Shown here: positions 29,658-64,000 of the stretch, piece after piece
Layout of the letters: every line of letters starts with the position of its first letter
Numbering within the stretch: the stretch's first letter is position 1
Assembly: GCA_030141605.1 (NCBI GenBank)
Contig: JAQGDQ010000928.1
Coordinates: forward strand, 1-64,000
From: Tubiluchus corallicola
Lineage: Eukaryota; Animalia; Priapulida
DNA length: 64,000 bases
Direction: 5' to 3'
Made by a program: the position numbers and the translations under genes
Notes under the pieces: model-generated
Database searches by the model: none
Seen by the model: only the letters and a program-made list of their open reading frames with translations
Told to the model about the DNA's origin: nothing

Positions 29658-29686
29658 AGAATTTACATTTCTTTTTCTGCAAATAG

Positions 29687-37066: not shown

Positions 37067-37282
37067 CTGCGAATAAATGAAGAATTTTATTTTCTTTCAA
37101 GATATTGTTGATTCACGGCTTAAAAAGCCGGATGAATTTGGTATAAGTACTACAATTCAAAGCTAAACTGAACATACTGTTTCATCACATGTGTTAAGTA
37201 TAGTGTGTCATGTAATCATACTGCAGGCAATTGTCATGTCGTGCCAGTAATAAAGTAACAGGAAAAGTCACAATTGTGGCTA

Positions 37283-42116: not shown

Positions 42117-42515
42117 ATCTGCAACGATTAAAATCCTCAGTAATCCGCAAAAAAACGAAAAAAACTTAACTGTCAATAAATTATATCTTGTTCTTTTGTG
42201 TTTAGCTGTTGCTGACTCCGCGAAATCCTTGAAAAGAAAAAAAATCCGCGTGTTAATCCGTTTTAGTAAATGTGTAACATTTACTCTTAATTTAAACTCT
42301 TAAACCCTGTTTCGCTTAAAGTTCGCAAAAATTCGTGGACTTCCGGAAAAAACTCCCGTGGACTTTGACTCCGCTAACATGTGATTAAGACTCAATTTCA
42401 GAAACATATTGTTATCAATCATAGTTGTTCTTTTGGTTGCGTTATCGAGACTCTATGACTCTAGAACAAATCAACTGAAGACTATAACTAATTTTTTACA
42501 CTAACAGTGTAGTCC

Positions 42516-42608
<93 letters not shown>

Positions 42609-42679
42609 TGTAGTGGTGGTGGTGGTGGTGGTGGTGGTGGCAGCGGCGGCAGCAGCAGCAGCAGTAGTATTAATATTAA

Positions 42680-42713
<34 letters not shown>

Positions 42714-42908
42714 TGTAGTAGTAGTAGCAGTAGTAGTAGTAGCAGTAGTAGTAGTAGTAGCAGTAGTAGTAGTAGTAGTAGCAGCAGCAGCAGCAGCAGC
42801 GGTAGTATTAATATTAGTAGTAGTAGTAGTAGTAGTAGCAGCAGTAGTAGTAGTAGTGGTAGTAGCAGTAGTAGTAGTAGTAGTAGTAGCAGCAGTAGTA
42901 GTAGTAGT

Positions 42909-42997
<89 letters not shown>

Positions 42998-43057
42998 CAG
43001 TAGTAGTAGTAGTAGCAGCAGTAGTAGTAGCAGCAGCAGCAGCAGCAGTAGTAGTAA
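42516..43057. repeat. (AGT/AGC/GGT)n compound trinucleotide microsatellite
   Basis: Direct inspection. Confidence 0.98.
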
Positions 43058-46000
43058 TGTTTTTTCTCCAAATTTCATAACACCTAGTTTAAATATTACA
43101 TAACAATTTTTTTATTTACAGAAATACATATGTAGCATTTATTACAATTTCGTGACACATACCTCGTGAAATCTGCACCCTATAGTTTTTTAACAAATTA
43201 TGAATGTAATTACAGGCAACTAAAGAAACCCGAATACAAAGCAAACATTCAATGAATTTGTATATATCATCAAAATTACCGATTAAATCTCGAAAGTTAC
43301 AAATTACAAAATTACATAATTTACGTGCCAATGCTGTTCTTTTACAATTCAAAATGAAATGTTTTCAACCCTCAATTAGTAACACAGGTTTACTAAACTC
43401 ACACAATCTATCTTCTCTAGGTTTATGTTGCCAACGACATTTTTCGATAGATAAATCGTGAGATATTAATTACAAGCGTACAATGTTTTTATAAGCATCA
43501 GTAAAGAATTTTTTCTCATCGCAAAACCCTGACTTTAAATCTGGATTAATATTTACATAGTTACACGTATTTTGATTTTCCTTGAGAAACCCGTAAGCGT
43601 AAACAATTCTTTAAATCTTCTTTTCCGATTCGCTTTCTAGTAACTGCAGTTCTGTACTTACCAACAAGAGATTTATAATTTACTATCTTTCCTATTCCGT
43701 TACATGATACTATTCCAAAAAATGAATTTCGAGTTGTTCACATCTTTGTCTAAAACACTGATAATGTACAAGCAGCTGGAGAAGTTTTGCACTGTTCTGC
43801 AATTTTTAATCACACTGTGTCTTCTCCAGAAAAGCTGGAGCTGAAAAGGGGTTATGGTTCATAAGATATTTCGCTTAGGTAACGTTATTATGGGTTTCAC
43901 ACGAATTCTGTATGCAAGCCCTATTATTCTCTATTATGGGGAAATACGTAACACCTAATCAACAACGATCATGGCAATGCAACAGCTGAATGAGATTGCC
44001 CTATTCAGGCAAGTGTTATGATAAGTCTTTATTAGCCTCTCTTTGCAGGCAAAAATATTTGTACCAACATTATACAATTTTACATAGACACTATACAGTG
44101 TGAATTCTACAATATTACATTTACGGATTCTGTAATTAGCTTTTCTAATTTGTGCATATAACATTTCTTACAGTGATATTAAACAAGAAGTATTGAAGTG
44201 CGTGCTAAAATCAAGGTTATTAATGCAGCAAGTTTCCTGTAAGGTAACGTAAAAATGCAGATGAATCGATATGCCAAATTATTAAATTCCAATTCAATGT
44301 TTAAATCCATAAGAGTTACAATAAGTAATCTCTAGAACTACACAAATTTAATCACTATTTTACTAAAAATTAACAGCAGGATCTTAAAATAAAAGGGTCC
44401 TTTACAAAGTAGGTTAGTGCCGATACTAAATTTTTATTTTTGGTCCAATACACAAGATTTAAATTTTCATTTCCCAGTTCGTTTAGTAGTACATTTCGCC
44501 TATTGTGTGTGTTAGGCAATCTGTACTGGACAGTGCTGCTCTCTGAGGCCAGCAGGTAGTTACCTCAACTTACCTGTCAGGTGATTTCATGGTTGATGAC
44601 TTCAGGTACCTGGCTTTGTGAAATACTGCAGACACTTGGCCTTGATATTTTGGGTCTGGTCACATGTAATTTATAGATTTGTGTCTTGTTCAGTAAATTA
44701 TTGTTTCCTGCTGTCTGCAGTTACAATTGGTGTTTATTGTCTGTTACAGTTTTCTAATGGTGCTCTAATGTTTGGGCAAGGATGTAAGTTGCTTTTATTT
44801 AAATTAAAAATGTTTGCAGTTTTGATTAGCTACTGAAATTAACTGTATATGTGAAATATTACTTTATGTAATTTGTTTGTGTATGTACTAATTTTAAGTT
44901 ATTATTTCCATAAAATATGCAACAATTTATTTACTTACATATATGTCTATATTTTTAACAGAATAAACAACTAATTTACACACTTATGTCTGGACTTGAT
45001 GTTTGGATTGGAGTATTTGAGCATTCTTGGTCATTCGTGATGAAATGGGTCATGCATGCTATACAATCTGAATATTCATTAAGGCAGGCTCGCCCTAATA
45101 TTTCTGCTCTGCGTTACTTCAAATGCTGCAAAACTGCCAAAACATGTTAGATCAGCATGGGTGTTTCACGTACTAGTAAGAAGACACACATGTTATTCTG
45201 TGTATGTAGGCGTGGTGTGTGTTTTAAGCCTATGTAACAACAACGCGTCCGGCCTACACATCAGCATGTATATGGATGCGTAGCGGAAAGGGCTATTCTG
45301 GCTGGGACGGAATCAATCAGGCATGCCACATGTGCCAGTAATGGTGATGATATCGGACTGGGTGGGTTGAGGACCCCCGGGGTTAATCCCGTGGGTTGCG
45401 GGATTAAAAGCCGGGGTCCCTCAACCACTCATTCCGGTAACATCACTACTACTTGTGGCGGGTAATGTTTTTACCCTCCCTAGAATAAATTTTCTGTATT
45501 ATTGATTAGTAACTTGAAAACATTGGCTGTTATTGTCTATTGCGTGCACGACGGTCATCTCCGGTTAATTAATGCAACAACATCAGTGGATGAACAAGGC
45601 GTTTCGTATTAGTCAATTGTTTAGTGAGAGGATTCAATACGTGTGGGCGTCACGAAAAACTAATATGTAGCTGATGCCTTGTCTGAGGCAAAAGTTTTTA
45701 AAATGTCACTTTTGTAATCAATTTTACTTTTCTCTTTCAAAAAACTTGTTTTGTTAATTTTGAGAGTAGACTGAAACTTTATATTTCTTTGATCTTCAGT
45801 AATAATAAAACACGATATGCTGGCTGACACGGATTTCACAATAGGCAGGTGCTGAATTGGTAATTAACACGCTGGGGATTCTCGTGGAATAAGAGGCAGC
45901 TGGCTACCTGCGCACAATTCTAGCTAGATGTCATTAATTGATGTTCACATGTCAAACGATTCGTATTACATGACATCTAAGAATTGCCAAGCATAGTGAT

Positions 46001-46379: not shown

Positions 46380-47010
46380 TTTCAGCAACATAAGTTAAAG
46401 TAGATCAGAATATTTCTTAATGAAATCTCTACTCAAACTCTGCCTCACTCTTTCGGGACGTCGCAGACTGATAACTGTAACATTCTTCTTTATAATATTC
46501 TGGAGAATCGGTTAGCTAAGCAATAGCAAACTCTTGCAAACTCTGCAGCTAGATTAGTGTCATTTCCACTCAGATTTGAGCATACTATACATATTCTGGT
46601 TCAATTATACTGGTCTTCGTAGAGTTTTGTATAGGATTTAAAATCTTACTTATTGTTTTTAAAGATCTTCAAACTTGTGTCAGCGTACAATATGTAACTT
46701 CCTTTAACCGGTTAGAAGCTCAAAGTTTGGTCTAAGATGTAATTACAGTAAAAAATTTGCCCCTAAAAGTAAATTACCACTTTTGGTCACAAGTCATCAC
46801 TGTAGAACGACCTACCCATTGAACTTTTATTGATTAGATTCTGTTGATAATTTCAGGTTAAACGTTGTTTGAAAACACAATTTTAAACAATTTTTAGCCT
46901 AAATTAACGCAATTTGCATTTTTATCTGTATTGTATGTAACTGTTGTTAGTTTAGTATGTATCACTGTGTAAAGTGCACTAAAATATTGTAACGATAATT
47001 AATGCGCTAT
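46380..47010 (+). mobile_element. Decayed 3' end of an L2-clade LINE
   Basis: Fragments SQTDNCNILLY, NSAARLV...FEHTIHILVQLYW and GFKILLIVFK resemble L2 ORF2 C-terminal motifs (SRLDYCNSLL, QNAAARL, LHWLP, FKILLLVYK). Confidence 0.7.
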
Positions 47011-47789
47011 GAAATTTTTGTTTAATGTAATGTGTCACTTACCGATTAAAATTCAGTAGTCAAAGTGTGGAATAAATTAGAATATTGCGTATAAACAGAG
47101 CCGCATGTTCAAGCTTTAAACGCGTCAATATATTTTCTACAGAACAATACATTGATCTTTCCTGGTGGGACCACATACAATTTTGTGCCGAGAGTTTGAC
47201 CAAAATGACTGTTGTTGATGATGGTGGTGGTGGTGATGTTGGGGAACGACCTAATTTGTATAGACCTTCATGAAACTTTATACGAACACGAATTCTGCAT
47301 CGATTTCAAATACAGAACTTGAATTCTACAAAAATTGCCGATTGTTGCTAATTATTGTCTGTCAAAATGAGCGAGGATGAGTGTATAAATCAAAAGTGTC
47401 TTTGTCTTTTTGACTGACAAAGTCGGGAAACCTATCAGTCGTTTTGAATTCAAAATGGCAGCTATAACATCATTTTCGAAAAAAGCCTAAAGCTCCAATA
47501 GCTAGTCATGAAACTTTACAGGAATATGGCAGACAGAAAAACGGCATTTATCTGCTATCAGTAATAACACCATTTCCGAAAAAATGTATTGCCCTGCGGA
47601 ATTGCAAAGGATCGTCATGAAACTTTATAGGATACTGTTGTGGGTTAAGTTGCAAGCTGAGGCACCTACGCAGTTGTGACATCAGTCCACAAGGTTCCAT
47701 AAGATTTGTAAAGTTTCTGGAGTTAAGTAATTACGATCACAACACAAATATTCGACCGCCTGCACTGTAATATCTGTGTAGTAGATAGG

Positions 47790-48262
47790 AGTAAAGAGAA
47801 GATGATAATTGTATGATTAGTATTAGCAGTTCAGTAATGAAACGACTCTATGAAGGGGATATGAGAGATATGTAGAAATGAAGCCATGATTTTAGGTGCG
47901 GCTGTCATGTGACTGAATTCCATATACGGACATTGCCCGTCTGAATTGTCAGACTAGCAACAATTATAACGCATGCGCTGTGAGTCCAAAAAGCTGAAGG
48001 AAGCCAAGTGGAATGGGAGATCAGATCACGGGGGAATCTCGAGGAAGCAGGAACAGATCTTGGGCGGTTCGGCAGAGCTATGATATGTACTTTACCATGT
48101 AATATATTATTGTGAAATAAATGTGTTAGTCGCTCATCAATCCAGGTCTTATAGCTTTGTCACCACCTCACGTCAATAAACGGCTGCGGCCTCCTCAATA
48201 ATCCACCAACAAGTACTACCACTATACGACTCAGCTCATAAACATAACATATAAATTTTACT
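47790..48262 (+). repeat. 5' LTR (473 bp)
   Basis: Starts AGTAAA and ends TTTACT (terminal inverted repeat); AATAAA at 48116; followed by a TGG-starting PBS; start repeated at 63954. Confidence 0.9.
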
Positions 48263-48279
48263 GGTACTTGTGACCAGTT
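48262..48279 (+). other. Primer binding site (tRNA not assigned)
   Basis: TGGTACTTGTGACCAG overlaps the last T of the LTR; TGG is complementary to tRNA CCA. Confidence 0.65.
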
Positions 48280-48690
48280 CCGATTTTTCTACACGGAGAG
48301 AGATTCTAGTAACCTGGCTTCATTGCGTCCACAACCGCGCTGATCCAAGCAAACATGAATAAAGCTGTTTATTGACGTAATTGATCTGCCACACATCTTG
48401 ACGTCTACAACTTTGTCGTGAGTACATGCACGTTCTTTCTCCACCCTAATATTTTACTTATGTACCTTTCCTGGTTGTGTCAGTGAGTGTAAGAGATAAC
48501 GGTTGCTTGTATTTTAAAGTCAAGGAGGGTTGTAGATAAACTCTAACTTGTATATCAAACATTTTGGAGGGTTGTAACTCTAACTTGAATATCAAGATAT
48601 TGGAGGGTTGTAAAGATTAATCCTATAATGCACTGTAAATTGCGCAGCGCAAATAGATTTCTTAAATTTAATCTCTATTAAACTTTCTCA

Positions 48691-50019
48691 ATGGCGACTA
48701 AATCTCCAGCACCTGAAGCTCAGCATGTGTCTATTGATACCTATAATGCTTTAGCAAATCAATTTCATGAGTTGAGTCAAAGATGCGAGAATAGTGATAA
48801 AATCTTACAAACCCAAGCTGCTCAGATTTTAAAACAAGGAGAAAGAATAGGTGATTTGAAACGGGCTAGTGATCAGACCCAATTTTTATGTGAATTGGGC
48901 ACTCATCTAAAAGACACTAAAGTACAACAAACATTAATCCACCAAATTCAACACTTACCGAAATTTTCAGGAGAACCCGGCACTCTCAAATATAGAGATT
49001 GGATTGATAATATAGAGCAGTCTCTAAACTTAACTCCTACATTATTGACATCAAGGGACACCGCCTACAAGCATTTAATTTTGGGCACTATTACAGGGGC
49101 AGCCGCAAACTTTGTGAGTAAATACCCAAATCTCGAGACGAGAACAGCACAGGAATTACGAAACGCCCTAAGAGACCTATACGCGGACCGACTAGAAATT
49201 AATAAGGCTTTCATTGGATTAACTCGAGCTAGGCAACAGAAGGGGGAGACCATACAGGCTTTTGGCGACAGGATACTCAAATTAGCAAGAATAGCAAAAA
49301 CGTCAGAAGATGAAATAGTAGACCCAGCCTTTCAATCATTTTTGGTACAATTATTTACACTGGGTATACGAGGGGACCAGGCACGTCAATACTTACTTAG
49401 AGAGCCTCCCCGAACTCTAACTTTGGCAATCACAGAAGCCGCTAACAGGGGAGCCCCCGTGGAGATGTGCCAATATCTTAGATCGTGTTTTCCAGATAAT
49501 TCAGAACCTATGGAAGTTGATCTAATTTCACAAGAACTTCATGAAGACCCCTCAGACATGACTCCCCATACATTGCAGCTGTTTGCAGATTCATTACTTA
49601 AACAGGGACAAGTTTTAAGCAACGTACAAGAATCGGTATGTTCTCTTAATAAAACTGTCGCTACTTTGGCAAAACCAACACAAAATCAACAAGCAAGATT
49701 CGGTAAAGGACGTCAATTTGTACCAACGGGTTTTAATAATAATAATAACCGACAATTTCGGACAACCAATCGACCTAACGCTCCATTTCAACGTAATTTT
49801 AATAACTTTAATAATAGACAGTTCTACAACGAACGACCGAACACAGGTTTCAGGTTTCAACCGCGCGCTACGAATAGAAATAACAACTTCAATCAACGCG
49901 CGTCATGGATGCCTAGAGAAAACGCCCCGAATTTCAGATTTCAGAATAATAGACCATTTATTCCTAGGTTTAATAGGGAAAAACAATCCGGCAATTTTAA
50001 TAGGAGAACGGCAAACTAA
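48691..50019 (+). CDS. gag: Gag protein (442 aa)
   Basis: N-terminal coiled coil, LPKFSGE...WIDNIE capsid start, QKGETIQAFGDRI (MHR-like), EPMEVD motif, N/R/F-rich C-terminus without a CCHC knuckle. Confidence 0.93.
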   Translation: MATKSPAPEAQHVSIDTYNALANQFHELSQRCENSDKILQTQAAQILKQGERIGDLKRASDQTQFLCELGTHLKDTKVQQTLIHQIQHLPKFSGEPGTLKYRDWIDNIEQSLNLTPTLLTSRDTAYKHLILGTITGAAANFVSKYPNLETRTAQELRNALRDLYADRLEINKAFIGLTRARQQKGETIQAFGDRILKLARIAKTSEDEIVDPAFQSFLVQLFTLGIRGDQARQYLLREPPRTLTLAITEAANRGAPVEMCQYLRSCFPDNSEPMEVDLISQELHEDPSDMTPHTLQLFADSLLKQGQVLSNVQESVCSLNKTVATLAKPTQNQQARFGKGRQFVPTGFNNNNNRQFRTTNRPNAPFQRNFNNFNNRQFYNERPNTGFRFQPRATNRNNNFNQRASWMPRENAPNFRFQNNRPFIPRFNREKQSGNFNRRTAN

Positions 50020-51357
50020 AAGCGACCATTCATGAAAATTATCGGTCGTCAGAGTGGTCGCATGATCCTAGACCGAATTATTCCAATTCTTCTTTTAATG
50101 CACCCGACAAGTCTAAATTTCAACAAACTGTTTCAGAAACAAAATATATTTCTATTGCATCCATAGAAACGACGGCTCCATTTTGTAATATTAAAGTTCA
50201 TGATTATCCTTGTACAGCTATCTTAGATACAGGAGCAGAAGTTAGTGTTTTAGATAGCACCACTTTCCATAAACTCCCAACAGAAGTACAAAAAACCCTT
50301 ACGTCCCCTGAAGATAATTTTGTTTTAAATACTGCTTCAAAAAGCACGTTAAAAATATTAGGTAAATGGCATTTTAACTGTTACCATAGGAAAACAGAAA
50401 TTGGAAAATTTGTTTTATATCGTAGATCAACTTTCAAAACCTGTAATTTTAGGTTATAACTTTTTCAAAAACACCCAAGCAGCAATAGATATTGCCAACG
50501 GAATTTTAGTCATAAATCAAGAGGTACTTAAATTAGCTCCCCCGAGCGAAAAACGCATCTTTTTGGTCAAAGCCGCCACTGCTTTATTAATTCCCCCAAA
50601 ATCTTGTGCACTTGGCAAGGCGTATATCACAGGAAATTTTCATAAGAATGATGAATGCGTTCATACTTTAGAACTCCTTAAAGCGAACGTATTACCTATT
50701 TATAAAGAAACCACATGTGACATAGTTCCCAGTATTGTGAATATGTATAAGAAACAAGTTTATGTACCCTTATACAATGACGGTGAAAAGGATGTAATTG
50801 TATCTCGGAATGACATTTTAAGTCTTGCAGTTGAACAAGACCCAACAGTTATGTATCAAGTTTCAAATATTGCTAAATGCACGGAAGTTATGAACTCGAT
50901 ACAACAAATAGCTTCGCAACTTCAGAATGAAATTTTCCCTAAAATAAATACAACGGATAAGGGAAATTCCTTGCCAAAATATGTTCGTAGACTTCACGTT
51001 CAGACACTGGACCATGTGACGAAATACGGACCACCACAAGATTACAGATTACAACAGACACCTTACAAGACTGAAGCCATCTTGTATAATACTCCAAATA
51101 TAATACATTCCATTGATGAAAATATAGAAGCTAAACCTACTTCAAATAAACGAAGACGGAAACGGCTACAAAAGCATATTAAACAACAATTCGTTCGTAT
51201 GATGTCATCGGAAAGCTTACTAAAAGAATTAAAATTAGATAACATTACAGATCCCGTACTTAAGGAAAGACTCACTAAATTGCTTCTTAAATATGCAGAT
51301 TGTTTTGCTGAAGATCCCATAGACGCCCCGGTACGTCGGAAATTGAATTTAAAATAA
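50004..51357 (+). CDS. pol: Pol N-terminal part: aspartic protease and spacer, interrupted by indels near 50370 and 51325
   Basis: CTAILDTGAEVSVL (DTG at 50226) in one frame; the continuation ENLFYIVDQLSKPVILGYNFF (ILG motif) is in the next frame. Confidence 0.85.
50010..50079 (+). promoter_or_regulatory. Putative -1 ribosomal frameshift signal (G_GCA_AAC plus pseudoknot)
   Basis: The protease frame is -1 to gag and overlaps it by only 16 nt; heptamer 50010-50016, 5-nt spacer, stem 50022-31/50052-61, second stem 50037-47/50071-79. Confidence 0.75.
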
Positions 51358-51359
51358 GA

Positions 51360-54300
51360 ATGACAGATTATACACCTTATCACGCTAAACCGTACCCTAT
51401 ACCTATAAATTTGGAATCAGTGGTTAAACAGGCTATAGACACTATGTTAAAGGCAAAAGTCATAGTCCCAGCTGAGAATTCTAGTTATGCAAGTCCCATT
51501 CTGTTAGTTCCAAAAAAAGATGGAGGGAAGAGATTATGTGTAGATTTGAGACAAATCAATGCACGTACACTCCCTGACCCCTACCCACAACCGAACGTCG
51601 AAACATTATTTAAAGAATTAAAAGGTGCTAGTATATTCTCCTCTCTAGATATGACAAATGCATATTTTCAGATACCAGTTGAACCCGACAGTCAACCTTT
51701 TACAAGCTTTGTCAGCCCGTATGGCTTATTCCAATTTACAAAAATGCCCTTTGGTTTGAAGAATGCACCAGCTACATTTTCCAGATTAGTAGACCGCCTT
51801 TCACGTGACTTAATAACACCCACGGGTAGGAGACGCTTAATTGCTTATCTAGACGACCTTGTCTGTTGCAGTCCGGATATTGAAACCCATTTTTCCGATT
51901 TAGAAGATTTATTTTTGAGATTACGGAAAGCAAATTTAAAATGCCGACCCAGGAAATGTTTTTTCTTACAAAAATCTATTAAATATTTAGGCCACGTTTT
52001 GTCTGAACAAGGCATTGCCACAGATCCGGCAAAGGTGTTAGCTATTAAGAATGTTTCACCACCCACAGATATTAAAAAGCTAAGAACTTTTTTAGGTCTA
52101 GCCACTTATTATCGCAAATTCGTCAAAAATTTTGCGATAATAGCTGAACCATTATTAATGTTATTAAGGAAAGAAAATTCGTTTAAATGGACACATTTAC
52201 AACAAGAGGCTTTTGACAAACTGAAAACAGTTTTAACTGAAGCACCAATCTTGAAATATCCGGAGACTAATACAGGTTATATTCTCCATACCGATAGTTC
52301 GAACTTTGGCATAGGCGCTGTTCTTTCGCAAGAAGATGCAGCTGGAAATATCGGAGTGATCGCGTACATGTCGGAAACACTAAACAGCTCACAAAGATTA
52401 TGGCCTACATTTCAAAAGGAAGCATACGCCATCGTAGCTAGCTTTAGAAAATTTAAAACATATCTATATAACGCGCCAAAAATCGATGTTTATACGGATC
52501 ATGCACCGTTAATTTATTTGTTTACAGGTGCTAAATTAATGAATCAATTACTGTCTCGATGGGTAGTTGAGCTATTACAGTATAATATTAATATTTATTA
52601 CCAAAAAGGTTCAGAAAACACAGTTGCAGACGCGTTAAGTCGACTACCTGCATGTCCAGATTTTATAGGAACGCTCCCAATATCCTTTAGGGATTTTCAA
52701 CAACAGTTTCTACAATATAATTCGCCTGAAAGATTAGCAGAGAAATATAAATACTTAGTAGATCAGAAATCTACTTCAGAGCGCAGTAAAGGTATTAAAA
52801 CTACAGAGATGATTGCCCAAATCAGCCAACAAATGTCAGGTCAAACTGAATTAGAAAACTACTCAGATCAGACAATAATTAAAAAGGTACTACCTATAGA
52901 GGGTAACATTTTAGAAGAAAATATTTGGACAGGTGAAGACCCATTGTTAAACAGACCAACGGTCGAATCAGCTGGCAATGAAAACGCTCCAACTCAAATT
53001 CCATTACCAGCACAAGAAACCTCCTCATCGGACAACCCAGCCACTCAATTAGAACAAGGTGAAACTGAACATGACCTGGACGAATTCGATGGATTACCTT
53101 TAGATCTAACGACAGTACAGCAATGGCAATTATCAGATCCTAAATTAGCACCAATTATTCATGCCTTAACCTCACCTACAGAAACTGATATTCAAACAAA
53201 ACATGCAGAAAATTTCTACATTGATGAGCAGGGATTATTGTATAAAGTTGAAAATGACTCCATTAATTTAGAACAGGAAAATTTACGGTTAGCCATTCCA
53301 GCGAAATTAACAAGTATTTTAATTAGAGGCTTTCATGACGAATTTGCTGGACATTCTTCAGTAAAAAGAACATATGAGCGTCTGAAGAAACGATATTACT
53401 GGCCCGGCATGTTTGTACAAATTAAGAAACATGTAGATCAGTGTTTGAACTGTCAAACACGGCGTATGAGACCGCATCGTAAACCTTTAGGTATCACAGA
53501 ATTAGCCAGTAAACCCTTTGAAAATGTATATTTGGATATCTTAATTTTACCCCAGACAGAATCTGGTTATAAATATTTACTAGTTTTAATAGATCAATTA
53601 AGTAGCTGGATAGAGGCCTTTCCTTTAATTGATAAATCAGCTAACTCAGTTGCTAATGTCATCCTTACAGAATATTTCTCTCGTCACGGAGCAAGTAAAA
53701 CCTTTTTCAGTGATCAGGGAACAGAATTCAATAATGCTTTATTAAAAGCTTTACTAAAAGAATTCAGGGTTGTTCAAGTATTAGGAACACCGTACCACTC
53801 GAATTCACAAGGCCAAGTTGAACGCGCTAATCGCACTATTATCCAACAATTAGCATATGTTTGTCAACAAAAGTCCACAGATTGGATTAAATATCTGCCG
53901 CATGTATTATTCGCCCTTAGAACAACTCCAAATTCAATAACGGGGTACAGTCCATTTTTTTTAATATATAATCGCCACTGCGATTTGCCACTCGATAATA
54001 TCCTTCAACTTAGATCTAAATATTACGGATCTGATCCAATTAGACTGGATCTAAATCGTTTGCATGAAGCCTTTCTGCAAACCCGACAACTGATGCATAA
54101 AAATCGTCTAGCCCACAAAAAACGCTATGATAAAAATACGCATATACCTCTTTTCAAAATTGGTGATCCAGTTTTCTTACGTAAAGGTAATTTAGACCCT
54201 GCTGAATCACATAAACTATGTCGACCGTGGGCCCCATATTATGTAATAGTTAATAAAATTGATGAATCCCGTCTTAGAATTGTCCATAATAACACAGGCA

Positions 54301-54819
54301 AGTTTAAAATAGTGCACCCAAACCGGTTACGAAAGGCAAATTTGCAAGGAAATCAATGGCTGCTACCAACAGGAACGTCGTCGCATTCCAAGCGAACTTC
54401 AAAACGAAAATCCACATTACATTACGTCCCGGAAACTCTTTCAGACACTGATTCAAATAACCTAATAAATGAGATCCAACCTGACCAAACCCCCATCGCA
54501 ACCCCGCCCCCGAACTTGGATTTCTATGAAAATGAACCCCAACCTCAACCTAACATTTCACCCAGTTCGTCAAATTCTACACTTCATTCTTTGCCAACTT
54601 TAGAACGTATAGATCCGATGGAAGAGGAGAATTTAATTCAAACCGAAACAGATTATGCAATGCCAGTAGACAACTTAATTCCCCCCCTCGCAAACCGTTC
54701 TATAAAACGCTCATCAGACGCCGACACGCNNNNCTGGTAAGCGTGCCAGAATTAATTTAATTAAGTTGCAAAAACCAGGCATCTTTAAAACATTACGCCG
54801 AAAATTTTGCAAACAATAA
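51360..54819 (+). CDS. pol: Pol: reverse transcriptase, RNase H, integrase
   Basis: RLCVDLR, MPFGLKNAPATF, YLDD; TDSS...TDH...VADALSR; HHCC zinc finger, DDE core (LDIL, SDQGTEF, QVERANR). There is an NNNN gap at 54730-33; the likely true end is ...GKRARINL...FCKQ* at 54819. Confidence 0.96.
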
Positions 54820-56592
54820 CTAAAATAATATTAATGTTACAGTTAAAGTTACCATGTATTATAAGGTCATACTTTAACGTTTAATATTACTGTTACAATC
54901 AAAGCATTTTTATATTATAAGGTAATACCTTAGTGCTATAAAATAGAATAGTACCATTTTAAGGACGAGAACGTCATCAATCATGTTTCTTTATGTATAA
55001 GGTAAGTACAAGTTTTATGTATAACGAAAGTGTTTAGAGTATGAACATTTTTCGATTCCCGGGAGAGCATTTCCCGTGTGTGACGTTTAAATGTCACATA
55101 CGGCATGCTTATGCATATCGAGGCTGTTCATGCAACTATTTTATTAAAACATTTAGTACGAGTTCAAAACATTTAGTACCAGTTCAAGCCCGGACACGAC
55201 TTAACACCACAAGAATATATATCGGTAAGTACATTACGAACATTAACATGAAGCCGTCCCCCCCCCTCACTCATGACTTTACATAGAAGGCGATCAGACT
55301 TTCATTTTCTTAATTTATGACACGCGGACTCTTAAGAAGTTTCACTAAGAAACCGCGCTGAGCCACGCAGGCGTCGTGTTTCATTCATGACTTTCACTTT
55401 CGTAATTTACGACCCAGGATTCCCAAGCTTTAAGAATACTTCTCTCCTAGAAGCCATATAAAGATCGTGTTTCATTCCTACTGATACATGCTGGGTACAT
55501 ACACGGCAACGAACCATATGAGCGCTAAAAGTCTTAGCCCATAAAATGGCCCCCCGTGAATGACGCCCAATGTTATGCTTCTAAACGTCACATAAACTTA
55601 CACTGGGGCTTACCACGCCTAAAGACACTCAGAGACTTTTATTTAATGCGCTTCCCTTCAGATAATGTAGCGTATAAATTTACTTAACAACTACACAAGT
55701 TCCAGAGAGGGATATTGCTTAAATGATTCAAGAATATTTGCACAACGTTCTAATGATTGACAGAATAATTGTGTATTGCTGTAACGATTTTAAAGAATAT
55801 TTCAAAAAGAGTATTTAGATATTGTTTTATCGACATTAGGAGGATATCTTACGGTATATCACTAAGTGTAATTAAATAAATACTTAACACAGCAACGAAC
55901 ATTTACGCTGTATTACTCTATAAAAAGAATTTCTATTCAACAAGCCCCATTGAAGTACTAGAACGAATAACCAACATATTAAACTAAGATTATAGCTAGA
56001 TTAAACTCGGAATTTCTAATTCAGATAACCGACTTGAATAAATGTATTGATCAAACGTTTTAGTCTAGAGTTTTAATTACTACAATCATTTCAAAACGGA
56101 TAAAAATGACCATTTATAACTTATACATTTTAAATTCTAACGACCATTTACGAGAAAGTTAAAACCAACTAACTGTCAGAAAATATAATCCATCTCACGT
56201 TTAGCTATAATTCAACTCACCCCTAGTTAATTACGGCAAATTACGCGCATCACTAGACAATGATAAAAGATTATATATAGTCTAGACAAGTGTCTGTTAA
56301 AACCGAACGCGCGGACTCATCAACGCAGAGTATTATCACCAAATTAGTAATTCTTCATGCAGTAGAAAAAAAAAGGTATTTTCCTTGTAGACTCTAATCA
56401 GCGAATATTCGATTATTGTATAATGACTTATGATGCTAAATACAAACATACCTTCCTTGCGATCCGCCTTGATCCATAATGCATAGTCACACTTCTATAT
56501 ATATATGATATGTCCACATAAAGGATAAATATTTTTTTTTCTTTTCAAATTTTAGGATTTTTTTTAAATTTTTTTTTAATTTTCCACTTTTC

Positions 56593-57147
56593 TTAGCACT
56601 TCACCGCTAACCACCTTTCTTCCGTTCCCTCCTCCCAGTTGCGTTTATATACTCTCATCACCCGTGCCAGGTCCCATATTGTTATTATGTTATGTGCCGC
56701 GGTGCAGATACAAAAATTCTCTCGGTTGATAAAGCGGACCCGGCCGGGCGCGTATTTGGTCAGTAAATTTGCCATAACTGGCATCCCATGAATACTGCTC
56801 AGTTTTAGCACCACTAGTTCTTCCTGTAAAAGGAATATAAATCTTTATTAAAAGTCCTCGAGACAAATTTTCTTTTAACTGCAGAATTAGCAATCTAGTG
56901 ATTTTAACATAATAGTCCTTACCTCAAAAAAAAAAAACAAAACAAAAAAAAAACCATTACTTACTCCATCAATGATGGACTTGCCGCAGAAAAGCTCGCA
57001 TGTGCCAGGCAAGTACGTCATTTTTAGAGCACGACTAAGTTGGTCATGCAACTGTGCCCGTTCATCCAAAACATCGTAAAAGTTCCCGCTCGTAATTTCG
57101 AGCTCTACTGCCAATAAGTAGGCATCTCTCGGTACTTCACATTCCAT
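56593..57147 (-). CDS. Putative two-exon antisense gene inside the element (exons 57147-56965 and 56823-56593; 137 aa, unknown function)
   Basis: AAAATGG start, GGA|GTAAGT donor, TTCCTTTTACAG acceptor joining in frame; GC-richer coding blocks between AT-rich flanks. Confidence 0.6.
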
Positions 57148-57970
57148 TTTTATTATTATTTTGAAACTAGTAAAACTGGTGAAACTAGAAAAAAAACTGA
57201 ATACTTTGCACAACTGATTAAGACGCCTTGACCACACGAACAGAAATTACGAAGAGGGACTGACCAACAACTGCAAGTCTCTTTTATGTGAGAGGCCTGG
57301 GAACTTTCGTATACTGCGTATAGAATTTGACTCCGTTTGGGCCCCAATGCTCATTACTAAGCGATAAAAGTACTAATAGTGAAAACCCTAGACGCAAAAC
57401 CGAAGCTTAACGACCATTCTGATCTACAACTTATCCTGAGAAAGGGGACTGCAAAATCTTTTCCCACGGACATTAACTGGCTTTAAGAAGAAAGATGAAT
57501 TGTTTTTACTATTAGCTGTCCAGGCCAAAATTATTGCAAGTGGACACGTGCTTCACTCGCCCCCCTTTGATCAACGCTGATCGGATTTCAAGACTCACCA
57601 AATAAGTCGAGATTGTTAATTGAGCCACACTTATTTACGCATGCGCACATGCGCCAGGGATACACCTTTAAAATAACTGTCCGTTACCTACTAAATCCAT
57701 TCATCCAGATTTTTCTTATAGTAAGGGACTCTGAATAGACGTTAAGATAATTTTGCCTTGAATACACATTAATCTTAATAATTTTTGCTGTGAATACATG
57801 TTAATCTCACCATCTCATAATTTGAATTTTTGTGAAAAAAAAAAGAGTATGGAACTTTCAGGAAATACGTAAGTTTATCTTAAATTTATTCTAACCTTAC
57901 TAATTTAGAGTCATAGAAATGATCTGTATAGGACAACCTGAATAATATTCCTTTTGAATTTTTTTTCCAG

Positions 57971-60586
57971 GACCAGTACTACAAACCTTTTATACAAAAT
58001 CCTAATATTGGCAATATTCTTAAATCTGTACATTCTAATTCCTTACAATCATTCCCAAATCCAGCTCCCTTTAAAACAGGCCCAGGGGTTATATTTAAAC
58101 AGAAATTAAATACTCCAGTTTCTAATGCAAGATGGCTACTTATTGCGCCGATACAGTTGGACCACATTCAAGAATTTCTCACTAGAACGCTTTCCGAAAT
58201 TCAACAATTAAGATTAATTAAAAAACCTGTCACAGTGATTAAAGCCTTTAAAACTGCTATTAAAAATAGAATCAGAAATCAACAATTTCGTTTAAATTCC
58301 ATTAAGAATTTAATAGCCTCGTCTGCCCATGAATCTCACGTCGTCAAACGAAGCATTTTTCCGAATCTAGGAAAGGCATTCAAATTTTTAATCGGAACCG
58401 CGAGTGAAGAAGATCTTCGAAATCTTCAAGATCAGATTACGAGTATCTTTAATACGCAACAAAACACGCAAGATATTTTAGAAAATAACCTAGCCCTTAT
58501 CAATAGCTCGCTAATTCGCTCTGCTAGAAATACAGAGTTAATTTATGACTTAGTGAACGCATCAGTTCAAACTCGACATTACATTAACAAACTGTCAAAA
58601 CAGTTTACTGATGACTTGACTAAAACTCAACATAAATTGTTTACATTCTTGCAAACAAATTTGCTGTTTGATCACTTTATCTATAGCTTAGAAATCATTG
58701 ATCAAGAATTGAATTCGTTATCCCAAGGTTTACATCAACTAATTCTTAATAAATTACCCCCAACTTTAATAACCCCTATACACCTTCAAAAGTCTCTTAA
58801 ACAAATTGAGGACCAGCTACCACAGAGCCTAATATTTCCAGCCGATATAAATAATCAATTATTCTATTATTACGAAACAATGTCGGCATTACCTATTCAA
58901 ATTCCCGGAGGGTTTGCTATCCTAACAACATTAGATTTATATCATGTCAATCACATCTATCAAATTTTTGAAGCAATATCGATCCCAGTCCGTCGGACAT
59001 CAACCAATATTAATAAACCTGTTTATCTATATAACCAAATTGATCATCAGTATATTGCTACGAATATTGAGCAGTCACTATATTTTTTCCCAGCCAAAGA
59101 TGAAGCCTTTGCTTGTATTCAAAGCCCAAAACGTATCTGTAAGTTAGCACCAACGCCAATTTTTCCTGCAGATAGAATAGAATCATGTACAGCGGCATTG
59201 TTTTTCAAGGACACTATTAAAATAGATTTATTTTGTGATCAACGAGCAAGAATTATTAATAAACTTGGACCAGTTATTATACCTCTAACTGAGAATACTT
59301 ATTATATTAGCCCGAGTTTTGAAATTCAAGCCATAAAATCTTGTTACGTACCCCGCCAGGCTCATAAGATTGGCACCCCCCTCACCATCAAGAACCCGAT
59401 GATCCTGCAGTTAGAATCAGGGTGTGGCCTATCTTCTAAATATGCAAATTTACCAATATATTTTAAGAATCATTCAGACCTTACTTTAACTCAAACGGAC
59501 ATCCAAACAATCTTAGATACGGCACTTAATTTAAGTACTTGGAACGTTGATTTATTAGGAAGTAATTTTACGATAGGAACACTTCAAACACTGCAAGCTC
59601 TGCCGTCACGAATGACAGAGGATGAACCACTTGACTTTTCTCTTAAAGGTAGTCAAAATCTCTTATTAAAACGACAGAAGTTTTTGGACCACACTGATGA
59701 ATTATTCAAAACCAAACCGGTTGACTTTTCCAATCATAAGGGTGCATCATTGACAACATACTTATTTATAGCACTTATTATAATCTTTATTATAATTTAT
59801 GTGACTTGTCGTACGAAAATTAAGACAGCATGTTGCCCCCGTCTTATAAACACCAAACCAACTTCTACCAAGGCTAAACCACCCCGCGGTACCCATTCTA
59901 ACAAACCCAATACTCCGCCTATGACACTTCACCCTAACCCAATGACCCGTAATAGACTTCCTCAATACCAGCCTCCCAAGGAATTTATCAAAAAACCCGA
60001 ACCACGGGAACCAATTGTTCGTTATAACCCAAATAACGATTCTGTTGATTTCGTATCCGTCTTTACATTCCATTCAAGAACAGTAAAACTTCGTTTATTT
60101 CTTTTATTCTATAGTTTTACCCACGAGGCCGAAGATCACCTTTCGAAAATAGATGACAGCATAGATAAATTTCTACAAGAACTTAACGAAACCTACGAAG
60201 TCAATTATAACTTGATTCGTAACCTTTCAACACCTGAGACACCCCAAACGCCCCAATCCAACTCCACCTATGAGAATACTGAACAAATTATGCCTTTAAC
60301 CTTTTCCCTCGCACCAGACACTCCGTTATCTCCCCAGGAAATATATCACTTTTTAAAATCACCACTTCCACCAATCCCAGACTCGTTAACAGCTGCTTCC
60401 AAAGACACACAGACTGACTTGACTTGTCAACCCAGCGAAAAAATTGTTTTTACTACAACTAAACTGTCACCCACTGTTTGTACTAAACAGACACAGACAG
60501 AATTTTCGTTTCCACCAGATCTTCTTGTTCTTGTGAAACGCCCTTTATCGGAAAACGAGTTCTTTCATAAATTCGCTCCCATATAA
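57971..60586 (+). CDS. env: Envelope fusion glycoprotein (baculovirus F / errantivirus env-like), probably spliced at its 5' end
   Basis: The frame opens after a TTTTTTTCCAG acceptor; GVIFKQ...WLL N-terminal motif; KR|SIFPNLGKAFKFLIGTASEEDL cleavage site and fusion peptide; heptad region, Cys-rich region, TM LFIALIIIFIIIYV, long cytoplasmic tail. Confidence 0.88.
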   Translation, partial: DQYYKPFIQNPNIGNILKSVHSNSLQSFPNPAPFKTGPGVIFKQKLNTPVSNARWLLIAPIQLDHIQEFLTRTLSEIQQLRLIKKPVTVIKAFKTAIKNRIRNQQFRLNSIKNLIASSAHESHVVKRSIFPNLGKAFKFLIGTASEEDLRNLQDQITSIFNTQQNTQDILENNLALINSSLIRSARNTELIYDLVNASVQTRHYINKLSKQFTDDLTKTQHKLFTFLQTNLLFDHFIYSLEIIDQELNSLSQGLHQLILNKLPPTLITPIHLQKSLKQIEDQLPQSLIFPADINNQLFYYYETMSALPIQIPGGFAILTTLDLYHVNHIYQIFEAISIPVRRTSTNINKPVYLYNQIDHQYIATNIEQSLYFFPAKDEAFACIQSPKRICKLAPTPIFPADRIESCTAALFFKDTIKIDLFCDQRARIINKLGPVIIPLTENTYYISPSFEIQAIKSCYVPRQAHKIGTPLTIKNPMILQLESGCGLSSKYANLPIYFKNHSDLTLTQTDIQTILDTALNLSTWNVDLLGSNFTIGTLQTLQALPSRMTEDEPLDFSLKGSQNLLLKRQKFLDHTDELFKTKPVDFSNHKGASLTTYLFIALIIIFIIIYVTCRTKIKTACCPRLINTKPTSTKAKPPRGTHSNKPNTPPMTLHPNPMTRNRLPQYQPPKEFIKKPEPREPIVRYNPNNDSVDFVSVFTFHSRTVKLRLFLLFYSFTHEAEDHLSKIDDSIDKFLQELNETYEVNYNLIRNLSTPETPQTPQSNSTYENTEQIMPLTFSLAPDTPLSPQEIYHFLKSPLPPIPDSLTAASKDTQTDLTCQPSEKIVFTTTKLSPTVCTKQTQTEFSFPPDLLVLVKRPLSENEFFHKFAPI

Positions 60587-60646
60587 TTTATATAAAGTTT
60601 GATTCAACGCTAATTTGTGATGTATAGATATGTTTCATTTTGCAGC

Positions 60647-60805
60647 ATGAATACGCTACGATCTAACCCCCCTACCGACGAAGTTATATCACGTCGCGCG
60701 TATATTACAGTCGTACTTTTGACACTACTTGTATTCTGCATAATAATAACGGGAATACTGTTTGCAGTCTGGGAAAGAAAATGTGAACTGCTGGGAAAAC
60801 AATAA
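60647..60805 (+). CDS. Small single-pass membrane protein (52 aa), putative accessory ORF
   Basis: ATG directly after a TTTCATTTTGCAG acceptor; hydrophobic segment YITVVLLTLLVFCIIITGILFAVW flanked by basic residues; AATAAA overlaps the stop. Confidence 0.55.
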   Translation: MNTLRSNPPTDEVISRRAYITVVLLTLLVFCIIITGILFAVWERKCELLGKQ

Positions 60806-61256
60806 AAGGGATGAAGAATTGAAATGTTGCCTTGAATAATATATGAGTAATTGTATAATGAGTATGACTGGATACCTTAACCTATTTTCCATATATCATT
60901 CTTTCCTTTTTTACCTTAACCTTAAAACCCTGCCTAGCACGTGCAAGAAGCCAGCCGGCTTCATCTCAACAAGACAGCTATCGACCGCCGGAAGTCAGCA
61001 CGGAAATCCATCGTACACACCGAGCGACGCAGCCAAGCCAAGCCAGTGATCATAGTAGTACACAAACTTTGCAGCTGTCTTTGCTAATGTTTGCTAATCG
61101 CTCTAGAACTAGTCTACGTAAACTACAGAACAACTATTTTGTGAAATTGTGTAAACCAGAGCCCTAGTTGATATATGGTGAACAGCATCAAAGAAAACTT
61201 TGTTCCGGTGAACAGCATTAAAAATAACTTCGTTCTACGTTTCATTTACCAGTGCA

Positions 61257-61616
61257 ATGAAACTAAATATGAAACTAAATATTCGAGTATTAGCAACTTA
61301 CACATATCAAAAACCACCTTTCAGGAAAACCTACTACCTCGTAAATTATAAAGGAGCTCAGTTTATTATCTTAGAATTACTACATACGAAATATTTTAGA
61401 AGATATCCGTTGAGTGTAATTAACTTTAAACCGTACTTTGATCGATATTTAACAATGAGGATGATTAAACATCGTGTTTCGCAAAATGTGAATCAAGCAA
61501 CTGTACCTACTATAAATTGTCAGGACTTTATAAATTGTCAGGACTTTATGCGCTGTCAGAACTATTTTAAACACTTAATGGGAGAACCACATATTTGTGT
61601 CGACGATATAATTTAA
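61257..61616 (+). CDS. Orphan 119-aa ORF
   Basis: ATG-initiated ORF between env and the receptor ORF; RKTYYLVNYKG weakly recalls the chromodomain YLVKWKG motif; internal INCQDF duplication. Confidence 0.4.
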   Translation: MKLNMKLNIRVLATYTYQKPPFRKTYYLVNYKGAQFIILELLHTKYFRRYPLSVINFKPYFDRYLTMRMIKHRVSQNVNQATVPTINCQDFINCQDFMRCQNYFKHLMGEPHICVDDII

Positions 61617-61711
61617 AAGAAACCTTTAGACTAACATATGTTGATGGTGCAAGAACATTCGGCCTTCGCTACATTATAAAGACGTTTAAAACGTTGTGTA
61701 ATTGTTTAGCC

Positions 61712-62578
61712 ATGTCAGACACGGTTATACAAAGCTGCCTAGTCTGTTCTGCAGCAGCTTTCATTAAACACTATGGCAAATTAACGTGTAACGCGTGCCG
61801 CTATTTTTTTTACAGAAAGCAGCACGTTAAAAATGTATGTTCTAAACGTGGCTGTGTTGGAAATTGTCGTATTACCCCAGACACCAGACGTCATTGTCAA
61901 CTTTGTAGATTTAACAAATGTATAGCCGTTGGTTTACAGCCAACTTCACCTCGTTTTGGGAGGTCATCTAAATCTCGTCAGAATCGTCTCAAAGCTAAAC
62001 TTAATTATCGGGTCAAATCTATTAACCGGATGGCAAACCAACTTCTACCTGTCGCCGTAAGAATCACAATTCAGAAGGCATGCCAACAACCCGAATTACA
62101 AACATTACCTGTCGAAGACCAGAAAATTCTACTAAAATCTGGCGCTCCAAGTATAATTCTAATTTGGCTAAATACACTTATTAATTTCGTGTCGCTTGCC
62201 CAAGAATTAGTGCCGCAACATCAACTCAGTGATTTCGATGAGTTTACACAACAACTTTATAGAACTGCACAGGCGATTATGCTAGTTAGACCAACGCAAG
62301 ACGAGTTGGAAATCTTAACAAACATCTTACTCTATGACTCAACTTGCCTTAATTTACAACGTCCAGACCGAGTGGCTCATTTTCACTCTCGGTGGATAGA
62401 ACGATTTAATTGTGAAATAGCACTTCACTGGCCTTCTAGATTCACCTCGCAAATGGGGGCTTTAAGCAACTTCCAGGCTTTATATCAAGCAGTAATCGCT
62501 TTTGCGACACGACTGAAGTCTGTTCAGCTCAACTTGGATCAAAACACTTGTTTTCAGACAGAGGAAGAGAATGAATGA
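61712..62578 (+). CDS. Intronless nuclear receptor (C4 zinc-finger DBD plus shortened LBD), NR1-like, 288 aa
   Basis: GCCATG start; C-x2-C-x13-C-x2-C with HYG; C-x9-C-x2-C-RFNKC-x3-GL; RFGRSSK C-terminal extension; LBD signature LPVEDQKILLKSG and H8-H9-like TQDELEILTNILLY. Confidence 0.92.
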   Translation: MSDTVIQSCLVCSAAAFIKHYGKLTCNACRYFFYRKQHVKNVCSKRGCVGNCRITPDTRRHCQLCRFNKCIAVGLQPTSPRFGRSSKSRQNRLKAKLNYRVKSINRMANQLLPVAVRITIQKACQQPELQTLPVEDQKILLKSGAPSIILIWLNTLINFVSLAQELVPQHQLSDFDEFTQQLYRTAQAIMLVRPTQDELEILTNILLYDSTCLNLQRPDRVAHFHSRWIERFNCEIALHWPSRFTSQMGALSNFQALYQAVIAFATRLKSVQLNLDQNTCFQTEEENE

Positions 62579-62579
62579 A

Positions 62580-63290
62580 AAATGAATAACATTACTGTAT
62601 ACTTATATTTTGAACTTTAAGAATAATGTTCAACATTTTGATCATTTTGATACAATTTTAACATGGAGATTCAATGAATAAATGAATAACATTGTGTGTT
62701 CAATGTATAATATGATGTTAAAGGAATAATATTGAATAACCGTGTGTATTCATATATGATGTCAAATGAAAGATATTGAATGACACTGTGTACTTATATT
62801 ATGGATGAAATGATGAAATATTGAACAACCGTGTGTACTTATATAGGATGTCAAATGAATGATTGTGTATGTATATTATGAAATGATGAATAACGTTGTA
62901 TACTTATATTTTGAAATGCGTCCAATAATGTTGTGTTCCTGTATTTTGAAATGAAATGTTGGATAGTATAATGTTGATTTTGCACGACGTGTGTATTTAT
63001 ATTGTATAATGATTGATGATTCATCGATGTCAGATTGTCATTTATACTTTTATGACCGTGATGGATGACGGATGATTTATTGATGCAGATTGTCACTTAT
63101 ATTTTATGACGGTGACTAATGATTCAGATTGTCACTTATATTTTATGACGGTGACTAATGATTCAGATCGTCACTTATATTTTATGACGGTGATTGACGA
63201 CTCAGGTGACGACTCAGGTTGTCATTGATATCGTTTGATAATGATTGATGATTCAGGTTGTCAGCTGATGACTTATAGCTGATGACATAT
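62580..63290. repeat. AT-rich degenerate tandem repeats in the element's 3' untranslated region
   Basis: For example the 39-bp unit GATTCAGATTGTCACTTATATTTTATGACGGTGACTAAT, about 3 copies at 63086-63195, and recurring GAATAAC..TGTGTA units. Confidence 0.75.
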
Positions 63291-63942
63291 ATATATATCT
63301 ATTTTGCCTTGATTTACGTAAATTTATATCCTGACTTGACTTGTATTCGGAATGGTATTTTAAATGGTATCAGTTGAACTCATATAATTACTCCTATAAC
63401 TATATATCTCAATAGCATAGTTGATACGATAAAGAAAATCGATTAGGATAGTATACTGCATGATTGGACCTATACACTCGTATATTGTGCGCTTACTTAT
63501 ATAGTTTGCATATATATATTAGAAACTCTGATAAATGTTACACGTATGTATCAACTGTGTGTTTAATAATATTTGTATATCTCATTAGCCTAGTTATACT
63601 TACTAAGGATGATAACATGATAAGGAAAATTGCTTGCTATACTAGATTTAACCGGTATACCTCACCTGTCCATATTACTGTTATCAATGTTGTAAATGTA
63701 TAGTTTAGTATAAGGACGAGCAAGCCTCGTGCCTCCATACTCACAAGGACATTCGGATTGCCTAGATATTTTAATTAGATATTTTAAATCAGATATTTTA
63801 CTTAGATATTTTAACTGGATATTTTACTCACATATTTTAAAAATCAGATATCTTAAATCACATATTGGTCATGTATTTTAGACAGATGATATAATATTAA
63901 AATTATCTAATCTGCCAGCCCCGAGGGAACTAACTTCCTTTT

Positions 63943-63953
63943 AGGAAGAGAGG
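63943..63953 (+). other. Polypurine tract
   Basis: AGGAAGAGAGG, preceded by a T-run and immediately before the 3' LTR start. Confidence 0.8.
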
Positions 63954-64000
63954 AGTAAAGAGAAGATGATAATTGTATGATTAGTATTAGCAGTTCAGAA
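63954..64000 (+). repeat. 3' LTR (first 47 bp)
   Basis: 46 of 47 nt identical to the 5' LTR start. Confidence 0.9.

Follow-up and report, generated by a model that had tools for sequence, protein, structure and literature searches.

Ty3/gypsy elements are held to depend on transcription factors supplied by the host, and the locus described here raises the question of whether one of them has come to carry a transcription factor of its own. It lies in a 64,000-nucleotide stretch of the Tubiluchus corallicola genome (assembly GCA_030141605.1, contig JAQGDQ010000928.1), which we refer to as the window. A first-pass annotation, made from the letters alone, described a nuclear receptor gene inside a retrovirus-like element and proposed that a host receptor mRNA had been captured long ago and kept under selection. 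Is the receptor part of the element, is it maintained there, what kind of receptor is it, and what might it do?

Results

Architecture of the element

The element is of the Ty3/gypsy kind and measures about 16.6 kb; its receptor open reading frame (ORF) is located downstream of an F-type env and upstream of the polypurine tract and 3' LTR. The features of the element are as follows.

47790..48262, + strand: 5' LTR, 473 bp, starting AGT and ending ACT, with 6-base inverted ends
48262..48279, + strand: primer-binding-site-like stretch, starting TGG and overlapping the LTR end by one base
48691..50019, + strand: ORF of 442 aa in the gag position, named by that position
50004..54740, + strand: pol, with protease-like motif, reverse transcriptase (RT), RNase H and integrase
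57932..60586, + strand: env, F-type, open from stop to stop, with no early ATG
61696..61711, + strand: short block ending AG-CC just 5' of the receptor ATG, a weak acceptor-like site
61712..62578, + strand: nuclear receptor ORF, 288 aa, intronless
61736..61921, + strand: two-finger C4 DNA-binding domain (DBD), Cys9 to Cys70, with P-box CNACRY, followed by an RFGR extension
62024..62551, + strand: predicted compact ligand-binding-domain (LBD) fold, about aa 105-280
62579..63942, + strand: 3' untranslated stretch of 1.4 kb, with degenerate 39-bp direct repeats at 63078-63256
63943..63953, + strand: polypurine tract, directly before the 3' LTR
63954..64000, + strand: first part of the 3' LTR, which the window end truncates; 46 of its 47 bases agree with 47790-47836

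The order of RT, RNase H and integrase, together with two direct LTRs, makes this a Ty3/gypsy element. Its length is 16,637 bp if the 3' LTR is taken at full length, and the LTR pair is spaced 16.2 kb apart. Loose contig ends in public sequencing runs stop at 48262, the end of the 5' LTR. The start of this LTR is uncertain by about 7 bases because its flank is similar to the purine tract. Positions 47770-47789 in this flank and 63934-63953 at the purine tract are alike at 11 of 20 bases, including 6 of the last 7, a resemblance that could be due to chance, to target preference or to an LTR that starts slightly earlier. Comparison of the two LTRs covers the first 47 bases of the 3' copy, all that the window contains. 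The single mismatch (47835) is a variant present at high depth in LTR contigs of all four runs. The first-pass annotation had placed the receptor inside the transposing unit, and the purine tract at 63943-63953 and the near-perfect LTR match agree with it. Its expectation that a full LTR runs from 63954 onward holds for the bases that can be compared, but the window ends within that LTR. Primer-binding sites begin TGG, as does the stretch at 48262..48279, for which no tRNA was matched.

Pfam domains in pol follow in the order RVT_1 (aa 50-213, E 2.7e-32), RT_RNaseH (277-408), Integrase_H2C2 (646-702) and rve (718-814); the protease-like motif was recognised by eye. Relatives of pol show 32-44% identity, and the homologues returned by the protein search are named gypsy/412-type. 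The reading frame of pol changes twice in the window copy, at ~50.36-50.46 kb in the protease region and again near 51.3 kb. Close to both changes, and at two places in env, contigs of all four runs are not the same length as the window, and the pol frame breaks may be private to the window copy or assembly errors. The 442-aa ORF in the gag position gave no significant match to a gag family in Pfam. In env, a Baculo_F match covers aa 87-628 (~540 aa; E 1.7e-4, 20.8 bits, below the curated cut-off of 24.1), and a strong pyrimidine-rich acceptor-like site ends at 57970. The element thus has the F-type or gB-type env after pol by which errantiviruses are recognised in the available part of PMC13524379.

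The spacers measure 3.2 kb between pol and env and 1.1 kb between env and the receptor, and 3.4 kb separates env from the 3' LTR. Between pol and env (54741-57931) there are only four ATG-initiated ORFs, of 62-86 aa, along with several acceptor-like and three donor-like sites. A CG-rich patch at ~56690-56760 in the same spacer may act as an internal promoter or form a small 5' exon of env. An AATAAA lies at 60801, directly after the env stop. Further downstream, the env-receptor spacer holds a CG-rich patch (60940-61050) carrying a CCGGAAGT motif, which we take to be ETS-like; this patch is a possible internal promoter for the receptor. The acceptor-like block at 61696..61711 did not pass the pyrimidine filter. 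GC3 is 0.34 in the receptor ORF and 0.29-0.35 in gag, pol and env.

Elsewhere, the window contains minus-strand exons of an amiloride-sensitive (ENaC/ASIC-type) channel gene at 4227-4508, judged by eye, and at 8079-8492, where 8079-8489 matches Pfam ASC (E 1e-19). Such window genes, the amiloride-sensitive channel exon in particular, mark the host as an animal. A broken non-LTR (LINE-type) reverse transcriptase, also judged by eye, lies on the minus strand at 11999-13923. Many tandem arrays are found at 22500-25000, 29000-34980, 37200-37800 and 42450-43100, with units of 58, 56, 80, 24, 96, 21 and 60 bases in addition to triplet runs. The 96-base array sits in the open frame 33195-34184.

Assembly and depth in public runs

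Four public runs (X1 to X4) cover the stretch. They represent at most two samples, X4 being the second, and one of them is possibly the window's own source. Each of the four runs covers every one of the 30 bins of 47000-64000, and depth is even in X1-X3. Contigs with 0-3 differences from the window overlap across the env-receptor spacer and the ORF. The sole N run in the element, at 54730-54733 near the end of pol, is crossed by contigs and is therefore not a false join; there is no N from 54733 to the window end. Among the contigs listed, no single one spans env to LTR. The first-pass annotation had named misassembly between env and the receptor as grounds for abandoning its reading, and this tiling, with the N run bridged, speaks against it.

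The run data are contigs, so that depth does not give copy number, and the flank that serves for comparison is partly repetitive. Read in that way, receptor depth is about 3.5 times that of the flank and tracks the element in X1 and X3, the two of the three runs of one sample in which the flank is clear. In X1, ORF-identical contigs have depths of 41-54, gag, pol, env and spacer contigs 46-65, and the flank 14.6-15.8. The corresponding values in X3 are 18.8-22.4 for the ORF, 21-29 for gag, pol and env, and 6.0 for the flank. X2 gives 1078-1144 for the receptor against 805-1041 for the element, with an ambiguous flank (264-902). Depth in X4 is very uneven, with receptor bins at 12-21 against 150-230 over parts of pol and env. 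Two stretches there, 50482-53056 in pol and 59046-59897 in env, have roughly ten times the depth of the receptor region. An uneven library would explain this pattern in X4, as would an internally deleted relative that has been strongly amplified. In all four runs the depth of LTR contigs is several times that of internal contigs, more than two LTRs per element would give, which suggests many solo LTRs.

A form of the element with most of the ORF removed (61658-62516, joint 61657->62517) occurs in X2 and X4, two of the four runs. This form keeps the 3' end of the ORF and therefore derives from a gene-bearing copy that later lost the gene. The first-pass annotation had proposed to test whether the receptor always lies between the LTRs; its depth is at element level in X1 and X3, but the deleted form shows that not every copy has it.

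Diverged copies and selection on the receptor

The public runs also contain contigs about 87% identical to the ORF, of at least two kinds in X1. Examples differ from the window by 35 differences in 279 and 32 in 243. A diverged pol contig lies at about the same distance (31 differences in 247), and this likeness of receptor and pol divergence fits whole elements diverging with the receptor aboard. The diverged contigs traverse the whole DBD without an intron (61705-62022) and stand at about single-copy depth (5.5-13 in X1, X3 and X4). Upstream of 61529 they do not fit the window sequence, and they regain the match at the acceptor-like block 61696..61711 (joints 61618->61696 and 61652->61705; one contig starts at 61696). 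Variant contigs also occur in the 3' untranslated part (joints 62588->62885 and 63641->63682). One diverged contig looks frameshifted, its gaps at 61814-61826 not summing to whole codons. Among the contigs listed, no diverged receptor contig is joined to env, pol or LTR, so the diverged copies could be host genes.

To ask how the ORF varies, we relied on the 40 variants listed of 171 rows, setting aside two that lie upstream. These rows are pooled over several copies and four runs of two samples, and the silent ratio obtained from them is not a formal dN/dS. Twenty-five of the 38 variants in the ORF are silent, where 10.9 would be expected from the same mutation types (P 5e-6), giving an omega-like ratio of 0.21. 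None of the 38 creates a stop, and 24 fall at third positions. The excess is seen in both halves of the protein, with 13 of 17 listed variants silent in the DBD (codons 1-100), where 5.2 would be expected, and 12 of 21 in the LBD (codons 101-288), where the expectation is 5.7 (P 0.003). When six rows at 61978-61987 near alignment gaps are left out, 22 of 32 are silent against 9.0 expected. In a frame control, one antisense frame also had 20 of 38 variants silent, which we take to reflect shared third positions and not a second gene. As far as pooled variants can indicate, the silent excess shows purifying selection among the diverged receptor copies, and the earlier proposal of a receptor retained under selection gains support from it.

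A compact receptor with altered functional motifs

The ORF encodes 288 aa with no internal stop and needs no intron. An intact, intronless receptor ORF between env and the purine tract and 3' LTR was the central observation of the first-pass annotation, and it is confirmed by a clear Pfam zf-C4 match at aa 8-76 (E 2.3e-14; score 54.1 bits, cut-off 21.1). Hormone_recep matches weakly at aa 119-153, with E 0.014 and a score of 15.4 bits that stays under the 23.5 cut-off. The HMMER comparison that the annotation had proposed thus bears it out for the zinc fingers and falls short for the second domain. The zinc ligands C9, C12, C26, C29, C43, C52, C62, C65 and C70 are invariant in all 36 alignment rows.

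Despite its sub-threshold Pfam score, the C-terminal half is, on profile and model evidence, a predicted LBD. A two-sequence profile of this half matches receptor LBDs down to E 6e-14. In an alignment-based model (pLDDT 88) the fold resembles that of solved LBDs, with Z 12-15 against 7.9 for the best unrelated row, although the model was guided by a receptor alignment and the fold match is partly circular. Examples are 4ozr_E (Z 15.1, rmsd 3.4, 159 aligned) and 3cqv_A (Z 13.8, rmsd 4.1, 165 aligned). The model is all-helical, with no strands predicted, and one helix runs from the DBD extension into helix 3. A fold model from the single sequence was unreliable (pLDDT 35.6). A language-model search placed the receptor with nuclear receptor clusters at 0.96, the nearest feature clusters being divergent host receptors of nematodes, arthropods and rotifers.

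The protein lacks an A/B domain and nearly lacks a hinge: Cys70 to Asp136 covers 66 aa, where the median is 185. Position 124 is Cys, where 32 of 34 ordinary receptors have Lys; we take this alignment column to be the helix-3 charge-clamp lysine. Position 122 is Lys, where all 34 ordinary receptors have an aromatic residue. Codon 124 of a diverged copy encodes another residue, and members of the family therefore differ at the clamp position. No AF-2 motif (hydrophobic-x-E-hydrophobic) was recognised in the acidic tail; the model has a short, low-confidence helix at aa 283-286. The tail after Glu198 is 91 aa long against 76-79 in Rev-erb-like rows, which leaves room enough for helix 12.

Relatives of the receptor

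In the PDB, the best sequence match is PPAR-gamma (60.4 bits), followed by Rev-erb-alpha (52.3) and ROR-gamma (50.5); among named LBDs the best match is an amphioxus ROR. The first-pass annotation had read the RFGR extension and the LLKxG motif as hallmarks of NR1D and NR1F receptors. Both (RFGR/KFGR and LLKxG) are present, but they occur in PPAR as well and hence are not specific to NR1D/F; as sequence signatures, they point to the broader NR1C/D/E/F group. The P-box is CNACRY, against CEGCKG as the commonest form among the 150 best matches, and the named ROR and Rev-erb rows carry CEGCKG. DBD identity is at most 51% to any of 35 aligned relatives. In a tree of 36 rows only, where long-branch attraction is possible, the receptor falls outside both NR1D and NR1F, on a long branch shared with a sister protein, P0139 (UFBoot 100). 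The NR1D/NR1F label was rejected on account of the P-box and this placement, and the receptor is best described as an NR1-like protein not nested in either clade.

P0139, a protein of 316 aa on a 2046-base contig, is the nearest relative of the receptor, with a full-length alignment at 24% identity. Of 150 matches, it scores best against the C-terminal half (E 6.9e-7). A shortened LBD core is common to the two (Asp136-Glu198, 58 aa in the receptor and 62 in P0139, against a median of 69). The P-box of P0139, CTPCRT, is odd too. A 369-aa protein (P0116) combines a receptor DBD with a C-terminal half that matches no Pfam family, and is a single ORF on 2-3 kb contigs.

Wider searches returned little. 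Among 1.84 billion protein representatives, no match reached 1e-30, and for nearly all listed matches the best-matching stretch was the DBD. A word-indexed protein search with the ORF found no relative among 421 candidates; with the two-sequence profile, it returned P0139 and six ordinary NR1I-type proteins among 1570 candidates. Neither the viral contigs scanned with the ORF nor the metagenome contigs scanned with the two-sequence profile and with P0139 held a related locus. The protein collections contained no near-identical cellular parent of the receptor.

Discussion

What the receptor may do

We hold it very probable that the receptor is selected cargo of the element. With the diverged copies so far unlinked to elements, this reading of the sequence data is well supported but not proven. 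Somewhat better than an even chance attaches, in our judgment, to the full proposal, that of a selected accessory gene captured from an NR1-type mRNA and acting as a ligand-independent, DNA-binding regulator of the element's own expression. The element would have acquired an NR1-type messenger RNA from its host long ago, and this would have become a compact receptor encoded by a separate fourth gene, which selection on the element would keep. Because the receptor is the last of four genes, it would need a sub-genomic RNA, produced by splicing or from an internal promoter. The changed P-box would give the protein a private binding site in place of host AGGTCA sites. With the hinge, the clamp lysine and the AF-2 motif lost, the LBD would serve dimer or co-repressor contacts instead of a hormone switch. 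Taken together, the kept fingers, the changed P-box and the lost co-activator features suggest a ligand-independent factor on a non-standard site. Action in trans would let copies lose the receptor, and the deleted and frameshifted forms fit this.

If the receptor is selected cargo, the chances lean slightly towards its acting mainly on the element's own promoters. Self-regulation is favoured because the changed DNA code fits its own promoters better than host response elements. Under the same condition, we give a smaller though appreciable chance to its acting mainly on host genes. The 5' LTR contains no canonical RGGTCA half-site where 0.4 would be expected, which is weak evidence either way, and scans for RGGTCA, RGKTCA, RGNTCA and AGAACA found no enrichment in any part of the element. 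The absence is uninformative because it is what a changed P-box would lead one to expect.

The accessory-gene strategy is known from complex vertebrate retroviruses. A more far-reaching reading, which we regard as doubtful, would have an old, unnoticed family of element-borne receptors that includes P0139, the captured receptor being the element's own trans-regulator with a private DNA code; as part of that same reading, regulation in the style of complex retroviruses would exist in an invertebrate Ty3/gypsy lineage.

Other explanations must be weighed against self-regulation by a selected cargo. The cargo could be selected for acting on the host in the manner of v-ErbA, binding host genes or taking up a host partner or co-repressor, so that infected cells are held in a state that favours the element. 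Such a receptor would have the same anatomy and leave the same signs of selection, and here its co-activator features are lost, as in a dominant-negative receptor, and the 5' LTR is without a canonical half-site. In addition, v-ErbA (UniProt Q64895) was the only significant viral fold match, being the only BFVD match with E <= 0.001 (5e-9). v-ErbA is the transduced receptor of avian erythroblastosis virus and helps block differentiation (PMC8061683, in the part available). However, the P-box has diverged from CEGCKG, which makes the protein a less likely competitor for ordinary host response elements, and an inherited element would presumably gain less than a tumour virus from harming host cells. 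We consider this host-directed role unlikely, though it is the strongest of the alternatives.

It is also conceivable that the gene is a passenger, belonging to a fast-evolving, intronless family of host receptors and only recently picked up by one element subfamily, in which case the silent-site excess would reflect selection on host paralogues and not on the element. The single-copy depth of the diverged contigs, the lack of any bridge to env or LTR among those listed and their misfit upstream of 61529 are all compatible with this, as are the deleted and frameshifted forms, the divergent nematode, arthropod and rotifer host receptors that form the nearest feature clusters, and a P0139 that comes without genomic context. 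Yet receptor divergence is similar to that of diverged pol contigs, the variant contigs extend into the 3' untranslated part, the DBD is crossed without an intron, and receptor GC3 matches that of the element genes; we find the passenger explanation improbable. A join of an unrelated host receptor between env and LTR during assembly might be suspected from the frame breaks, the N run and the length differences from run contigs in the window copy, and from the lack of a single listed contig spanning env to LTR. Against this stand the complete coverage of the region in four runs with even depth in X1-X3, the bridged N run and the near-identical contigs tiling the spacer and the ORF, which leave an artefact very improbable indeed.

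If the receptor is carried and kept, then an inherited retroelement can take up and remodel a whole transcription factor. The element offers a direct test of whether receptor cargo controls the element or the host cell, and the protein is a natural minimal receptor, with no hinge and a new P-box. There is also a warning for annotation: in invertebrate gene sets, transposon cargo may account for some of the odd “lineage-specific” receptors that have no introns.

Comparison with known systems

Env-carrying Ty3/gypsy elements, or errantiviruses, are widespread in invertebrates and carry an F-type env (available part of PMC13524379). The element described here resembles them, as they are presented there, in its LTR-gag-pol-env-LTR order, its F-type env and its several near-identical copies; it differs in having a fourth ORF, a length of about 16.6 kb and spacers of 3.2 and 3.4 kb. 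The LTR search in that study dropped pairs more than 14 kb apart, so the pair reported here (16.2 kb) would have been dropped. The terms “nuclear receptor,” “hormone” and “zinc finger” do not occur in the available text of PMC13524379, nor do receptor-cargo terms in what is available of its seven supplements. The first-pass annotation knew of no described Ty3/gypsy element with receptor cargo, and a literature search that took in few subscription papers and was conducted outside Repbase likewise found none.

Among receptors, the closest likeness is to the NR1C/D/E/F group (PPAR, Rev-erb/E75, E78 and ROR/HR3), which shares the C4 fingers, the RFGR extension, DQxxLLKxG and the best sequence matches. 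The protein departs from that group in its P-box, its DBD identity of no more than 51%, its missing A/B domain and nearly missing hinge, its missing clamp lysine and its position in the tree, where it is not nested among these subfamilies.

Host-derived domains kept by a retrotransposon family have been described before. CopiaMBD is a retrotransposon with a captured methyl-DNA reader fused to its integrase and a role in chromatin (PMC6673714), rotifer retrotransposons encode ORF3 enzymes (PMC5408684), and other retrotransposons bear a DNMT (PMC5890265). In the available parts of these sources, the cargo is an integrase-fused reader or an enzyme, whereas here it is a whole sequence-specific transcription factor behind env. 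The element is errantivirus-like with a host-derived accessory gene, a type of cargo for which we found no precedent in such elements.

The nearest parallel is v-ErbA, likewise a host nuclear receptor in a reverse-transcribing element with its ligand response altered (PMC8061683, in the part available). The two cases differ in age and in organisation. The capture of v-ErbA is recent and its sequence is close to chicken TR-alpha, while the receptor described here is far from any known receptor. v-ErbA is a Gag fusion in a replication-defective tumour virus. Transduction of that oncogene type, with a Gag fusion and loss of viral genes, was considered for the present element and set aside, as gag, pol and env are all present and the receptor is a separate ORF beside them. 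Here the element is inherited in several copies, and its receptor shows an excess of silent changes.
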